Source: a phage
Length of the DNA stretch: 64,000 nt
Direction: 5' to 3' (one strand)
Assembly: GCA_018509705.1 (NCBI GenBank)
Contig: GCA_018509705.1_3630.1
This document shows, one piece after another, positions 9,124 through 52,054 of the stretch (its first letter is position 1; each line of letters opens with the position of its first letter). Below the pieces are notes generated by a model that was not told the DNA's origin, made no database searches, and saw nothing but the letters and a program-made list of their open reading frames with translations. A program made the translations under genes and the position numbers.

Positions 9124-10255
9124 AGAATATCCACTTATTGAGTCCATAGATTGTCTGGCTGATCTTCTTGAACCTGACGCTATAGTTTATTATGACTTCG
9201 ATCAGGTTGCATATCAAGCTGCAGCAAGTTGTGAAAAAAGGACAATTGAGGTAACACACAAAGCCTCCGGACGTAAGAAGATGTTTAAAACACGAACAGA
9301 GTTCTGGGGGCGGCAGAAGAACACCGTTGGTGGTTGGTTAAAAGCTGAGAATACCAACCGTGAAGCTGCATGTAAAAAGGCTGGCAAGGAGTTTATTCCG
9401 TGGACACGAGAAGATTTCGATGTCTTGGATATCCAAACCCCTGATCCTGTAGAGAACTGCTTGCACACAATTAAGTGTAAAGCTAATGCAGTCCTTAATT
9501 ATCTCGGTATTCCGGAAGATCGGTGCGTGGGGGTACTTGGAGGCACAGGTAATTTCAGACTAGATCTTCCCATGCCGGAAAGATATAAAGCCAACCGTAA
9601 CAATACTCTTCGACCACTGCTGCTTGGAGATGCAAGACAGTATCTCCAAAAGCAGTATAATGCTCAAGTGATCAACGGTATCGAGGCTGACGACTGGTTA
9701 GCTATCCAGCAATTTGAAGGTTGGAATCACTACCAAAAAACAGGTAAGTTCAACAAGTTTATTATCTCTATTGATAAGGACCAAAGAACACTACCGGGGC
9801 TTGTGTTCGATCCCATGCGAAACGATAAGGGAGATTTTGTAAGAGAAACCCCTATGCTGATCGATAACGGTATGGGGAACATCTTCATGAAGCCTAATGG
9901 AGAGGTTGGTGGTTACGGAATGCTGTTCTTCGGATACCAAATGCTGTGTGGTGACTCTGCTGACAACATCAAGCCGTATCAGGGACTTATCGGTAAGGGT
10001 AAGTTCGGAGATGCCTCAGCATTCTACCTACTGTCTCAGTGCAGCACTCCAAAGGAGATGTGGATGGCTATTATTGATCAGTACAAGAAGTGGTTCCCGA
10101 AAGGTGTTGTTAAGTATACTGACTTCAATGGTATTGATCGTAGAATTTCCGTAGGTCAATGGATGAGTATAATTTTTGACTGTTTGTATATGAAGCGAAC
10201 ATTCAATGATCAAACAAAACTTGTTAACGTTCTTAGAAATGTTGGAGCAATTTGA
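9116..10255 (+). CDS. 5'-3' exonuclease / flap endonuclease-like (RNase H-like)
   Basis: GIEADDWLA matches the GxEADD motif of FEN/5' nucleases; TTG start with AGGAGG RBS. Confidence 0.5.
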   Translation: MSREYPLIESIDCLADLLEPDAIVYYDFDQVAYQAAASCEKRTIEVTHKASGRKKMFKTRTEFWGRQKNTVGGWLKAENTNREAACKKAGKEFIPWTREDFDVLDIQTPDPVENCLHTIKCKANAVLNYLGIPEDRCVGVLGGTGNFRLDLPMPERYKANRNNTLRPLLLGDARQYLQKQYNAQVINGIEADDWLAIQQFEGWNHYQKTGKFNKFIISIDKDQRTLPGLVFDPMRNDKGDFVRETPMLIDNGMGNIFMKPNGEVGGYGMLFFGYQMLCGDSADNIKPYQGLIGKGKFGDASAFYLLSQCSTPKEMWMAIIDQYKKWFPKGVVKYTDFNGIDRRISVGQWMSIIFDCLYMKRTFNDQTKLVNVLRNVGAI

Positions 10256-10587
10256 TGACTAAAAATTCTGTAGATAACGCAATTATGGAAGCTGTTTTTG
10301 AGGATGATCACACAACAGGGACACTTAAAACAAAAAATACATTCGTTGTTGCCACAGGTATGTGGCGGTTGTATGAAGATGACACCATTTCATACATCCT
10401 GTACACGGATGATTACGCAGATGACCGTGTATGGTCTGCTGTTTTAAAAGAGGATTGTGAGCTGATTGAGGGCGAGCGGTTATGCATGTTCACCAGTGTG
10501 GAAACAGATGTTAAGCTTTGCTCTCTCGTATTGTTCAAAGATAAGGCTTATGCTCCTGATGAAGGAGAGGAGGATGAGGAAGCATGA
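10252..10587 (+). CDS. Hypothetical protein
   Basis: 111-aa ORF, acidic C-terminus. Confidence 0.4.
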   Translation: MMTKNSVDNAIMEAVFEDDHTTGTLKTKNTFVVATGMWRLYEDDTISYILYTDDYADDRVWSAVLKEDCELIEGERLCMFTSVETDVKLCSLVLFKDKAYAPDEGEEDEEA

Positions 10588-37629: not shown

Positions 37630-37887
37630 ATGAAGATTAAATTGAAAAACCTTGAAACGGCAGAGATTCAGGACGGTGTTGATTTCCGTTCTAAAGATGG
37701 TGACATCTTAGAGGTAAATATTCCAACCTACGAGCTGATTAAAGGTTTTGGCAACGTTCAGGAAGAGGATATTACAGAAATTCTTATGATGTTGATTCTT
37801 GACGGAACTGTGTTTGTAGGTGAAGGTGAGAACGCTATTGCAATCCCAGGCCATTTTTATGAAGTAGTTGACGAAGAGGTGCTGTAA
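37630..37887 (+). CDS. Small paralog family A member
   Basis: MKIKLKNL start, YEVVDEEVL end. Confidence 0.55.
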   Translation: MKIKLKNLETAEIQDGVDFRSKDGDILEVNIPTYELIKGFGNVQEEDITEILMMLILDGTVFVGEGENAIAIPGHFYEVVDEEVL

Positions 37888-38238
37888 ATGAAAGTAGAAA
37901 TTACTGGTTTTGATGTTAATGTGGTTCCGGAAGATATTTTAGCTAAACTTCCGGAAGGTTTTGGTAACGGTGTTGTGGTGGATGCTGTTCCTCCTACTAA
38001 AGACATTCTGCTGCAGTATGGTGTAGCAGAGGAAGATGTCGATAAAGTTCTTACAATGATGGCAATCAATCGTGTTGTCGTTGTTAAAGGTCTCGATAAT
38101 TTTGAGAGTGATCCACTGATTATTCGTGGAGATGACTACAAAATCATCGATAATGAAGGCCAAGAGTTCTATGAGCCTTGTGCAGAAGATATTCTTAACT
38201 TATTACTGGAAGCAGGCACCGAAGAGGAGGACGAATAA
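37888..38238 (+). CDS. Small paralog family A member
   Basis: MKVEITGF start, acidic C-terminus. Confidence 0.5.
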   Translation: MKVEITGFDVNVVPEDILAKLPEGFGNGVVVDAVPPTKDILLQYGVAEEDVDKVLTMMAINRVVVVKGLDNFESDPLIIRGDDYKIIDNEGQEFYEPCAEDILNLLLEAGTEEEDE

Positions 38239-39362: not shown

Positions 39363-39614
39363 ATGACGAAGATTGACTTGAATGCTGGTGATCATGTTGT
39401 TGTCAAATGCGTTGGAGATTATCTTGGATTCACAATCGGCAATACTTACGAGGCGGTAGTGGCGAAGGTTTATCATGATAAAGTCCTCAGTCTTGTATTT
39501 GACTGTGATGATGACGGAGATGACCGTTACGTCTGTGAGGTGCTGGCTCGTGACGATAGTGAAGACCAGAAATTCCTGGTTATTGAACTGAACGGTATTT
39601 TTGTAGAACGTTAA
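39363..39614 (+). CDS. Hypothetical protein
   Basis: ATG with AAGGAG RBS inside track ORF 39297. Confidence 0.4.
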   Translation: MTKIDLNAGDHVVVKCVGDYLGFTIGNTYEAVVAKVYHDKVLSLVFDCDDDGDDRYVCEVLARDDSEDQKFLVIELNGIFVER

Positions 39615-40638: not shown

Positions 40639-40663
40639 CAAAATATCAAATTTAAGACACCTA

Positions 40664-40690
40664 GGACGCTCTGTGGCGTCCTTTTCTTTA
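40664..40690 (+). terminator. Rho-independent terminator
   Basis: AGGACGCTCTGTGGCGTCCT hairpin plus T-tract. Confidence 0.6.
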
Positions 40691-40851: not shown

Positions 40852-40880
40852 TTGACACATTACCGCTCCAGTGATAGTAT
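40852..40880 (+). promoter_or_regulatory. Sigma70-type promoter (TTGACA-17-TAGTAT)
   Basis: Read directly. Confidence 0.55.
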
Positions 40881-40912: not shown

Positions 40913-41002
40913 ATGAGAACATTGTCCGAAGTTTTAGTGGTGATCCTGATGATTATTACGTCCATAGCGGCTGTTGCCGGAATACTCACGGGTGGAACAT
41001 GA
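40913..41002 (+). CDS. Small hydrophobic peptide (29 aa)
   Basis: Hand-translated MRTLSEVLVVILMIITSIAAVAGILTGGT; GGAG RBS; ATGA overlap with next ORF. Confidence 0.4.
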   Translation: MRTLSEVLVVILMIITSIAAVAGILTGGT

Positions 41003-41211
41003 TCAACACACATGCATCTGAAGAGACATCCGAAGGAGTGACCATATGTCCCTTGGCTGATCCAGTGAAAGAGGAAAACTTCGATTCTGAAGATTCTCCA
41101 TCTTCGCTCCAGGTAGATCCTGAGGCTGATGATCTAACGTGGGAAGACATCGTAGACATCTGGTTCTCTATTATGCCTGAGCACGAAGAGTTCAGGGGTG
41201 GTAGACTATGA
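40999..41211 (+). CDS. Small highly acidic protein
   Basis: 70 aa rich in D/E. Confidence 0.4.
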   Translation: MINTHASEETSEGVTICPLADPVKEENFDSEDSPSSLQVDPEADDLTWEDIVDIWFSIMPEHEEFRGGRL

Positions 41212-41332
41212 AGCACCGAGCCCACACAGGTTCCTCATGCTAAAGCATGGCCTGAAGAGGCAAACGTGCATAATTCCAGTGCATTGGAACGTATAAAACC
41301 CAGTTCACACTCTCATTTCCAGAGGAGATTTC

Positions 41333-41548
41333 ATGAAGATAGAAATATTTGGTGGAGCTGACAACACTCGTGGCCTGATTTACCTTGAGTTCGATGAATC
41401 ATACCTGCCAGAGGTGTTAAATATGGACTCTGTTGCTGATGCTTTGGGAGTAAGTCCTAAAGATCTCTACTCTGGTGCTGAGATTGATGGTTGGGAGGAG
41501 ACCATGAACATTGATTTCAGTGAAGTAGGTGATGAACCACTGGACTGA
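41333..41548 (+). CDS. Small acidic protein (family A-like start MKIEIF)
   Basis: 71 aa; AGAGGAGA RBS. Confidence 0.45.
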   Translation: MKIEIFGGADNTRGLIYLEFDESYLPEVLNMDSVADALGVSPKDLYSGAEIDGWEETMNIDFSEVGDEPLD

Positions 41549-43034
41549 CACACAATTAGCTACCCGGCTAAAGTGCTGGGAGCACCTATAACACATCTTT
41601 CAACTAAATTTCCCACCACCACAATCACTTACCTCCCACACATGACTGTTTGCTTGTTTAGTGAGCAGTCATGCCTTGACATTCTTGCCTATCCTGATAA
41701 AATTAAGTTCTTCTCTTTTCTTTTACCGAGTAATTCGGGTTTTCTGTTCTCTTCGGTTTGAAGGGGGTATGGAGATACACCTGAGTGAACAGGGTGAACA
41801 ACCGAACCATTGGCTATGGCATTAGCATGGCGAAGCGGACGGGTGACGAAAGAGGGGCCGGAGGACACCAGTCACTGCCATATGATATATGGGTGATAAC
41901 CTGAAGAATCTGAATAAGTGTTTAAGTACCAGTCAGAGGAAAAGGTGAATGGTAGCTGAAGGGGAGGGGGGTTTCTTGTATCTTTAATTTGTATATTATG
42001 TATACACTTGTAAACCAATTTCATCTGAATCTGTTTACCACACAAAGTGGATAGAGACAAATATTACCTATTAAACTTGAATTATTTATAGAAAATACCA
42101 CAACACCACTTAAGTCTTTGATTTTACACACAAATCCTGCAGATATTCAACCTCCATATTTAACATACTTGTAACATATTCCATACTCTACCTGCCTGAT
42201 CAATTTCCCCAACTACATCCCCCATATTTTCCCTGTCTGTACTACCCCTGCCCCGCCGGGAGTCCCGTCATATCTGGCTTTCCAGCAAATATCACACCCA
42301 CAAATATCATTGCCTGAAGAGGGTTTCATCCCATAATACCTGCCTTGCCTGAAGAGGGTTTCATACGCCACGTAAATTTTTTAATTGACCCCTCCCCGCC
42401 GCCGGAAAGGTTGGCTTTTCTCGCACAGACCTGAAGAGTCAGCCAGAAATATCTGAATAGGCCCAATTCTACCCCGATTTTGACCTGACCTACAGGAGCG
42501 CTGCCCTGTCAGGAGCCGTAGCGACTGGAGTGCTGCCAGGCGGACGAAATGGGAATACTTCTCATTCTTATAACAATTCTCAAATATCGAGGCAGTGAGG
42601 CAAATTAATAGGCCAGGCCGTTCACACAGTGGCACAACATTTGCAACCTATCCTGTGGGGATGAATGAGAATACCTATCATTGTGAGAACCATTATCATT
42701 ACGGGCAATTTAACATAATACCCATTATGCGCACCACTGGCGATACATACAGGGATTGATAACATGGGTTACTGTTTACGCACATAACAATTATATTTCT
42801 TACCATTTGTGTGGGATATAGTTAGCAGCCGATAGATTAGATATTAACCTGCAGACTTCTGACCGTCCAGACGTCTAAACGCCCACACACCAAGGATTAT
42901 ACATACACTCCTGAATGTAAACAGGGCCGCAAAAATGCTACCATACAAGCTTGTAAATTTTTCATGCAGCACTTGACAAAGAGGAGAAAAACTTGTCTGA
43001 CATAATGTGACCTAACTGACACAACATGACACTT

Positions 43035-43121
43035 TTACACACCTATTAGTTTACACACTGGATTGTTTACATTCCTGATTGTTCACATGCTAACCATTTA
43101 CATGATTGACTGTTTACACAC
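43035..43121. repeat. Six phased iteron-like repeats of TTTACA/TGTTTACA at about 16-bp spacing
   Basis: Copies begin near 43035, 43050, 43066, 43082, 43099, 43112. Confidence 0.6.
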
Positions 43122-43130
43122 CGATAATCA

Positions 43131-43394
43131 GCCATGCCATTCGTTTGCATGACAATAATTATACATGACAATAATCGCACTGATTATAATTAGCATGACA
43201 TAATATAAAAGCAGGGCAACTATTAGCAGATCTATAGTTGCCTTGCTTGTCATGTCATGATTAACTAAATACAAGGCAACTATGATCTGATTAATAGTTT
43301 GCAGACAAACTATCACGGGGGTGATGGTTACTGCTTTTATATTATGTCGCGACTCCGTCGCGCCATGCCATTCGTTTGCATAGTTGCCTTATTG
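43131..43394. repeat. Composite dyad region: 20-bp direct repeat GCCATGCCATTCGTTTGCAT (43131-43150, 43362-43381) framing an 18-bp inverted repeat and multiple GCAACTAT sites
   Basis: Inverted arms GACATAATATAAAAGCAG (43197-43214) and CTGCTTTTATATTATGTC (43331-43348); GCAACTAT in both orientations. Confidence 0.7.
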
Positions 43395-43991
43395 TTACAG
43401 ATAAAATAATTGTATTGTTAATTATTTCTTATCTTTCTATTAGTCATCTAATGATTTCAGTTAATATAGTAACGTACAGTAAACATTAGACGACTAAAGA
43501 TTTCTCTGCTTATGGTAACCTAACGTGACAATTCCAGACTGTTTACGAAAAATGTTGACACCTGGGCCGATTTATGTTATGCAGTTTACACGAATAATTA
43601 TTTTATGCAGGTATTGACTATTCCGTTATTCTATGGTTGGAATAAATGCTTAGCAGGCTATAGAATGGCGAGCGTACGTAAATTCTGAGATCTGGCGGCT
43701 ATAGTTATACTCGATTTTTCACGTAGAAAACGCTTTTGTAGTTATGTAAGTGTATGACTTATAAAGATTTTTAGTTGTTGACAAGCTATTGAAGATATGC
43801 ATCAGGTTAAATTTTGTGCAAATGCTGCATTATGTGCAATTTTGGAAGGAAAAACGTGTAAAAATGGCCCTGCTACCACACAATGAAAAATTATGCAATA
43901 GTTATTTTATATGTATGTTTGTACAGTGGGGTTAATTGCTGGCTTGTTGATTATTCCATTTGCCAGGCGGGGCCATTTGTGGTAGGAAAAG

Positions 43992-44022
43992 AGGAGACAA
44001 AAAGAAAGGGGCTTTAAGCCCC
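43992..44022 (-). terminator. Rho-independent terminator for the leftward gene block
   Basis: GGGGCTTTAAGCCCC hairpin followed on the - strand by TTTCTTTTT. Confidence 0.55.
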
Positions 44023-44042
44023 TGACCGTGCACCTTGTTGTA

Positions 44043-51712: not shown

Positions 51713-52054
51713 TTACTCGTTTTCTTCCAGCTCCGCAAGCTCTTCTTTTGCTTCTTCTAACTCTGTCTGTAATTCCTGGTATTCTTCATCGTCCTCAATA
51801 TCCAGGCTGTCGATGTAGTCGCTAAATCCGCAGCGGTAAGCGATAGGATCTAGCTCCTTGAGGATACGCGACGGAAGAAAAGAAATGTTTCCGATCATAA
51901 TTTCGCCGTAGATCTCGTCTAACCATTCATCATAGTTTTCGTCGTACTTGTCCTCGTCGATTTCAAAGTTATCGATCTTATTCTCAAGGTCTGCGATCTG
52001 TTTTTTCAGTTCAGCGATCTGCATAGCTTTTTCTGAGGCGGTCATAGTAGTCAT
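51713..52054 (-). CDS. Highly acidic coiled-coil protein
   Basis: 113 aa, D/E-rich with heptad-like spacing. Confidence 0.45.
   Translation of the reverse strand: MTTMTASEKAMQIAELKKQIADLENKIDNFEIDEDKYDENYDEWLDEIYGEIMIGNISFLPSRILKELDPIAYRCGFSDYIDSLDIEDDEEYQELQTELEEAKEELAELEENE

Follow-up and report, generated by a model that had tools for sequence, protein, structure and literature searches.

The small and strongly acidic proteins encoded in a 64,000-nucleotide stretch of phage DNA (the whole stretch that was analysed, henceforth the window) raise the question of what such proteins do for the phage, and in particular whether they imitate DNA and so inhibit restriction enzymes or other DNA-binding host factors, as a preliminary description of the sequence had proposed. 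The window is that of a Vequintavirus (rV5-like) coliphage and shows ~96% identity to E. coli myoviruses of this genus (MaxBurger/Bas54, ime, naswa and Alma among others). Its + strand gene block, which runs to 41548, contains RNA ligase, DNA ligase, exonucleases, ribonucleotide reductase and similar genes followed by small unknown genes, and the - strand block starting at ~44043 includes the DNA polymerase gene. These blocks agree with the layout described for rV5, which has four transcription units, one of which ('82-163') terminates at the corresponding place and adjoins a stretch drawn as 'non-coding' (PMC3606486). Two of the acidic proteins (ORF1 and ORF2) are encoded at the end of the replication and nucleotide-metabolism unit, and the third (ORF3) within the DNA polymerase block. 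About 18 GenBank records (MG0656xx, 'Campylobacter phage ...', UNVERIFIED and labelled Campylobacter jejuni) are 87–100% identical to E. coli Vequintaviruses over the region of ORF1 and ORF2, and their host labels are probably wrong or due to contamination.

All three ORFs are present where they had been described, and computation of their charge and isoelectric point gave pI values of 3.2–3.5 and net charges of -15 to -27:

ORF1, 40999..41211, + strand: 70 aa, 19 D/E against 3 K/R, pI 3.5, net charge about -16
ORF2, 41333..41548, + strand: 71 aa, 18 D/E against 3 K/R, pI 3.2, net charge -15
ORF3, 51713..52054, - strand: 113 aa, 36 D/E against 9 K/R, pI 3.5, net charge -27

The strong D/E-richness claimed for them is fully borne out, as they occupy ranks 1 to 3 by net negative charge per residue (0.21–0.24, with D+E at 25–32%) among the 129 non-overlapping ORFs of the window, for which the median composition is 14% D+E vs 12% K+R. 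They therefore have the small, strongly negative profile (pI about 3–5) expected of a DNA mimic, and this profile is the sole positive evidence for mimicry, but it does not discriminate. A pI below 4.5 is found in 28 of the 129 ORFs (about a fifth), so that being acidic says little, by itself, about what a protein does. No paralogy was found among ORF1, ORF2 and ORF3. Elsewhere, other small acidic ORFs of the + strand block are weakly paralogous in pairs (37630-37887 with 37888-38238 and 39363-39614 with 10255-10587; BLASTP E = 6e-6 and 3e-4), which suggests local duplication of small acidic genes.

Comparison with known families gave no mechanism. Searches of ORF1–ORF3 against Pfam, PHROGs, NCBIfam and all PDB chains (E up to 1; the chain set includes Ocr, ArdA, Gam, gp5.9 and Arn) returned only members of their own families or coiled-coil noise. 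Each is a full-length member of a PHROG (ORF1 of 16356, 3e-49; ORF2 of 12108, 2e-46; ORF3 of 9294, 2e-53), and the ORF3 family has relatives in PHROGs 9396 and 37123; all five are annotated as 'unknown function', hence membership says nothing about how they act. Ocr (T7 gp0.3), a DNA-mimic inhibitor of type I restriction-modification (R-M) and of BREX, is likewise small and extremely acidic, but no homology to it was detected in the four collections. ArdA, which stands for the anti-restriction mimics of plasmids and transposons, is also acidic and acts early on entry into a new host, but at about 165 aa and with an elongated three-domain fold it differs from ORF1–ORF3 in size and architecture, and no homology to it was found in Pfam, NCBIfam or the PDB chain sequences. 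That a very small, acidic and helical protein can be a DNA mimic is shown by gp5.9 of T7, which inhibits RecBCD. It is close to ORF1 and ORF2 in size, and like them acidic and helix-rich, but no sequence match to it emerged from the search of all PDB chains. In short, sequence and profile similarity to known mimics is absent in all of these collections, which argues against mimicry. The literature searched contained no transcriptome or functional study of the three genes, and the main text of the rV5 virion proteomics study names no product from their gene range.

The elements considered here, those around ORF1 and ORF2 with ORF3 added, are the following:

40663..40682, + strand: hairpin and T-run resembling a terminator; phages Gotham and Murica have a terminator annotated at this site
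40852..40880, + strand: predicted sigma70-type promoter with an extended -10 (TTGACA-17-TGaTAGTAT), 10 of 12 matches, TG present
40913..41002, + strand: 29-aa hydrophobic ORF, MRTLSEVLVVILMIITSIAAVAGILTGGT, with a GGAG Shine-Dalgarno sequence and a stop codon overlapping the ORF1 start (ATGA)
40999..41115, + strand: N-terminal half of ORF1 (residues 1-39), an acidic S/E/T/P-rich tail, length-variable and evolutionarily unconstrained
41116..41211, + strand: C-terminal segment of ORF1 (residues 40-70), DPEADDLTWEDIVDIWFSIMPEHEEFRGGRL, conserved
41333..41548, + strand: ORF2, a 71-aa acidic protein with a conserved GGAG Shine-Dalgarno sequence, conserved over its whole length
51713..52054, - strand: ORF3, an acidic protein of 113 aa with no relation to ORF1 or ORF2, whose phage family is very large and uncharacterised

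The hairpin closes the upstream run of small genes, and what lies downstream is therefore a separate unit. To follow its evolution we aligned a 1.1-kb region from 14 genomes (the window and 13 relatives, 74–98% identity). Both hexamers of the promoter are conserved in 13 of the 14, and a promoter at the same site was independently predicted in the annotation of phage Gotham; in rV5 itself, the only promoters reported are sigma70-like, 11 of them with extended -10 elements (PMC3606486). The cassette would thus be driven by a host-type promoter, a property that it would share with ocr and that is compatible with a mimic acting on host defences. The 29-aa ORF that comes first behaves as a coding sequence, with a pN/pS of 0.11 in frame vs 0.5–2.9 out of frame, and is intact in 11 of the 14 genomes. 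It probably encodes a single transmembrane helix and is coupled translationally to ORF1. The same mini-ORF is disrupted in the other three genomes and goes unannotated in many records. Promoter, Shine-Dalgarno sequences and ATGA start-stop coupling are all conserved, and the 121 nt separating ORF1 from ORF2 are without coding signal. An ORF annotated in the spacer region of MaxBurger (41198-41296) was considered as a gene and rejected, its variable sites being spread evenly over the codon positions (11/9/10). Each of the 118 phage records with ORF1 also has ORF2 and vice versa, all belong to Vequintavirus, and no relatives of either were detectable outside this genus. Taken together, the pattern of conservation indicates that ORF1, ORF2 and the putative 29-aa membrane peptide form a small accessory cassette restricted to Vequintavirus.

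The three might be annotation artefacts, i.e. acidic stretches of mis-called or non-functional frames, and the preliminary description had itself named mis-called acidic linkers as the outcome that would undo its proposal. For the beginning of ORF1 this suspicion is partly justified. Over residues 1-39 the variable sites are distributed 18/18/20 over the three codon positions and pN/pS is about 0.6 in every frame, so this half evolves neutrally, and with indels, the whole ORF1 coding region ranging from 177 to 216 nt across relatives. Annotators differ on where ORF1 starts, and a +2 frameshift lies near its 5' end in two relatives, MaxBurger (L002, 3516-3714) and L003 (an IMG/VR contig). In MaxBurger, an ATA-to-ATG change following an AAGGAG motif creates a new Shine-Dalgarno and start codon for a 55-aa form that contains the conserved C-terminal part. 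This change appears to compensate for the frameshift by restoring expression of the conserved C-terminus.

The rest of ORF1 evolves very differently. Within residues 40-70, 22 of the 31 positions are invariant among 27 homologs and the other 9 are at least 90% conserved, variable sites fall 5/3/16 by codon position and pN/pS is about 0.08, i.e. strong purifying selection. Since the C-terminus is constrained and the N-terminus is not, these 31 residues are likely the functional unit of ORF1, and the N-terminal tail, probably disordered, seems expendable although it holds much of the acidity of the protein. Both points weigh against an Ocr-like role, because much of the charge that suggested mimicry sits in an unconstrained tail and because ORF1, unlike Ocr, is conserved over only 31 residues. 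An amphipathic helix was considered for the C-terminus and rejected, as its hydrophobic moment was no better than that of shuffled sequence. ORF2 is under strong purifying selection along its whole length (variable sites 10/5/31; pN/pS 0.17 in frame vs >1 out of frame). Its homologs form 21 clusters of 86–99% identity, and it is free of indels in 12 of the 13 relatives; the divergent L004 has an altered C-terminus, and in L005 it is cut by the contig end. The AF2 model of ORF2 is of low confidence (pLDDT 48, from a 15-sequence alignment). Frame-specific selection and conserved ribosome-binding sites in ORF2 and in the ORF1 C-terminus, together with the thousands of homologs and confident predicted fold of ORF3 (see below), already refute the artefact explanation for ORF2, ORF3 and ORF1 residues 40-70. 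These are real genes and not chance ORFs, the suspicion holding in part for the ORF1 N-terminus, and for the proteins as a whole it is hardly credible.

Downstream of ORF2, an ORF-poor stretch of 2.5 kb (41550-44040) separates the two convergent gene blocks and corresponds to the one drawn as 'non-coding' in the rV5 paper (PMC3606486). It contains two conserved blocks without codon periodicity, at 41700-42150 (3–7% variable sites) and at 43200-43650 (5–7%), to be compared with 16–20% variable sites in the flanking coding DNA. A promoter with an extended -10 (TTGACA-16-TGaTAAAAT, 41676-41703), itself highly conserved, marks the start of the first block; behind it come a T-rich leader that does not vary and a hairpin (41726-41738). 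Among 120 phage records, 101 have this block at 95–99% identity, and it is hardly ever annotated. A structured RNA was considered for it and rejected, with no match in Rfam and folding z-scores of -0.25 (+ strand) and +0.58 (- strand). The candidates for it are a non-coding RNA, an origin of replication and a packaging or regulatory site. Inside the second block lies a repeat cluster (43131-43397) with an 18-nt perfect inverted repeat (43197-43214 / 43331-43348), a 15-nt hairpin (43209-43223 / 43234-43248), a 34-nt direct repeat (43206 and 43266) and a 20-nt perfect direct repeat (43131 and 43362), which by its arrangement looks like an origin or operator array.

ORF3 is a different matter. 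It has homologs down to 40% identity, and an exhaustive profile search collected 3,853 representative clusters, 1,742 of them at E <= 1e-10. What the family shares is a core of ~40 residues (Y-D-x-x-L-D-E ... S-R-x-L-K-E-L-D-P-I-A-Y-R-C-G-F-S-D-Y) between variable helices. The AlphaFold2 model is confident (pLDDT 91) and has a long helix at either terminus, the two being separated by two short helices and a beta-hairpin. The predicted shape is an antiparallel coiled-coil hairpin or stalk, formed by the terminal helices, with a small alpha/beta head on it in which the conserved motif lies. Foldseek comparison of the model with the PDB gave no significant match; the best was prefoldin beta (TM 0.43, E = 2.4) and not Ocr, so an Ocr-like fold was not found, nor did any known mimic match in fold. 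The BFVD matches were all uncharacterised proteins, from Pseudomonas, Clavibacter, Gordonia and Pseudoalteromonas phages. Across 130 diverse members, net charge per residue has a median of -0.24, and of -0.39 in the C-terminal arm, whose sequence is unconserved; this estimate comes from the top profile hits and is biased towards acidic arms. Charge retained while the arm sequences drift is compatible with a mimic.

So is the position of the family in other phages. Its members in T7-like podoviruses (Lepni01 gene 4, HTVC109P gp03 and RS8pmA ORF6) are found among the early genes and precede the gene for RNA polymerase or primase, which recalls the pre-RNAP early position of ocr in T7. The core also appears tandemly duplicated in metagenomic proteins of 300–560 aa (P0205, P0206, P0216, P0227 and P0165). 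A Pfam scan of these fusion proteins gave no informative partner domain, and the gene neighbourhoods of distant ORF3 relatives offered no conserved informative neighbour. Whether ORF2 could be a divergent homolog of the ORF3 core, in a register seen by eye, was also considered and rejected; hhalign recovered the same register at a probability of 0.3% (E = 0.19), and ORF2 obtained no score against a 168-sequence HMM of the ORF3 family with filters off.

The same evidence bears on another explanation, namely that the proteins serve the phage's own processes as acidic chaperones or scaffolds, or as regulators of replication or transcription proteins; for ORF3, a coiled coil with a head could suit an assembly helper of the prefoldin or gp57A type. 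The genomic positions of ORF1 and ORF2 at the end of the replication and nucleotide-metabolism unit and of ORF3 in the DNA polymerase block fit this idea, as does the top-ranked fold match to prefoldin beta, although this match is not significant. The ORF3 core is conserved across phages of marine, Pseudomonas and actinobacterial hosts, and such a spread over very different hosts fits a phage-internal or universal target better than a host-specific one. On the other hand, ORF1 and ORF2 do not extend beyond a single genus, a distribution more usual for accessory than for core functions, and the podovirus genes of the ORF3 family lie in the early pre-RNAP region, away from the morphogenesis genes. 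We consider a role inside the phage's own machinery unlikely, if worth keeping in view.

Published plating data provide a phenotype against which inhibition of type I restriction can be judged. The BASEL text describes the Vequintavirinae as 'exceptionally susceptible' to R-M systems (PMC8594841). According to the raw data of the same study, EcoKI restricts lambda and Bas01 by about 1e4 to 1e5-fold (lambda vir, 5 EcoKI sites, EOP 2.4e-5; Bas01, 3 sites, EOP 1.9e-4), yet the Vequintaviruses Bas53-56, with 11–15 EcoKI sites, plate with an EOP of 0.1–0.75, mostly 0.1–0.6 (PMC8594841). This set includes Bas54, a close relative of the window. Among the S5 Table rows listed, Vequintaviruses have 9–15 EcoKI sites, and on the type IB system EcoCFT_I their EOP is about 0.2–1.4, with one outlier at 4.7 (PMC8594841). 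The same phages plate at about 1e-3 to 1e-4 on EcoRI and at or below the detection limit on EcoRV and the type III system EcoCFT_II, with rare EcoRV plaques at ~1e-6 to 1e-7 (PMC8594841). Vequintaviruses thus escape EcoKI and EcoCFT_I despite their many EcoKI sites, yet suffer from type II and III systems. Such near-insensitivity to type I R-M would fit the phenotype expected of an Ocr-like inhibitor, and this type I-specific escape resembles that of Ocr-carrying phages. The window itself holds 7 EcoKI sites against 6.95 expected by chance and therefore shows no site avoidance, a point on the side of an inhibitor. Sites of the EcoAI/EcoCFT_I type (GAGN7GTCA) are somewhat depleted in the window (2 vs 6.9 expected, sd 2.9).

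The phenotype is, however, shared with a phage that lacks these genes. The BASEL authors find type I systems weak against the majority of phages and account for the type I escape only by the rarity of sites, and the phi92-like phages Bas60-62, with 12–14 EcoKI sites, have an EOP of 0.1–0.7 (PMC8594841). For Bas61 we confirmed 12 EcoKI sites in the genome, with an EOP on EcoKI of 0.1–0.36, and found no homologs of ORF1–ORF3 anywhere in it (tblastn with E up to 10 and profile HMMs; positive controls worked). Bas61 escapes without them, and equally well, a further difference from the Ocr case; therefore the phi92-like lineage does not need these genes for its escape. This does not settle the matter, as the Dam-like, N6-adenine and Dcm-like methyltransferases encoded by Bas61 could give it protection of their own.

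With these data in hand, the proposal that at least one of ORF1–ORF3 is a DNA mimic, its carboxylates imitating the DNA backbone so as to block type I restriction enzymes, or else RecBCD, BREX or a nucleoid protein, can be weighed as a whole. It draws on the charge of the three proteins, the host-type promoter of the cassette, the charge retention and ocr-like location of the ORF3 family, and the type I escape of Vequintaviruses at sites that are not avoided. It is opposed by the absence of resemblance to known mimics, by the equal escape of Bas61 (with its own adenine methyltransferases), by the general weakness of type I systems against most phages (PMC8594841) and by the 28 comparably acidic ORFs of the window. 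We regard it as quite improbable.

The explanation that we favour, to which we would give an even chance, makes all three small accessory proteins that bind to a partner from the host or the phage, which is what small accessory phage proteins usually do. We infer early expression and action by protein binding. ORF1 and ORF2, expressed from the host-type promoter, would bind stoichiometrically to, and modulate, a host or phage protein with a basic or hydrophobic surface for docking. In ORF1 the active part would be the invariant C-terminal segment of 31 residues, in which an acidic stretch surrounds a hydrophobic-aromatic core (IVDIWFSIM), the acidic N-terminal half of the protein being a dispensable tail, whereas ORF2 would act as a compact unit of 71 residues. 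ORF3 would be a separate case; since its family lies among the early genes of podoviruses, our best guess for it is an early part in host takeover or counter-defence. DNA mimicry is one possible mechanism for binders of this kind, but nothing beyond acidity marks ORF1–ORF3 as mimics. A bolder version, in which the ORF3 family, with its apparently new coiled-coil-plus-head fold, is a widespread and unrecognised nucleic-acid mimic used in counter-defence or host takeover, and/or the ORF1/ORF2 cassette is the factor behind the near-immunity to type I systems, seems improbable to us.

Two points nevertheless deserve experiments, namely how rV5-like phages escape type I systems and what the ORF3 family does. 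The practical value of the analysis is a short list of constructs for an anti-defence screen, namely ORF1 residues 40-70, ORF2, and ORF3 with its core. Should any of them prove to inhibit type I restriction, or some other defence that binds DNA, a new anti-defence family would be added to those known, and in the case of ORF3 this family would span phages of many hosts. Such inhibition would also explain how rV5-like phages, popular candidates for therapy and biocontrol, can ignore EcoKI-type systems while being very vulnerable to those of types II and III.
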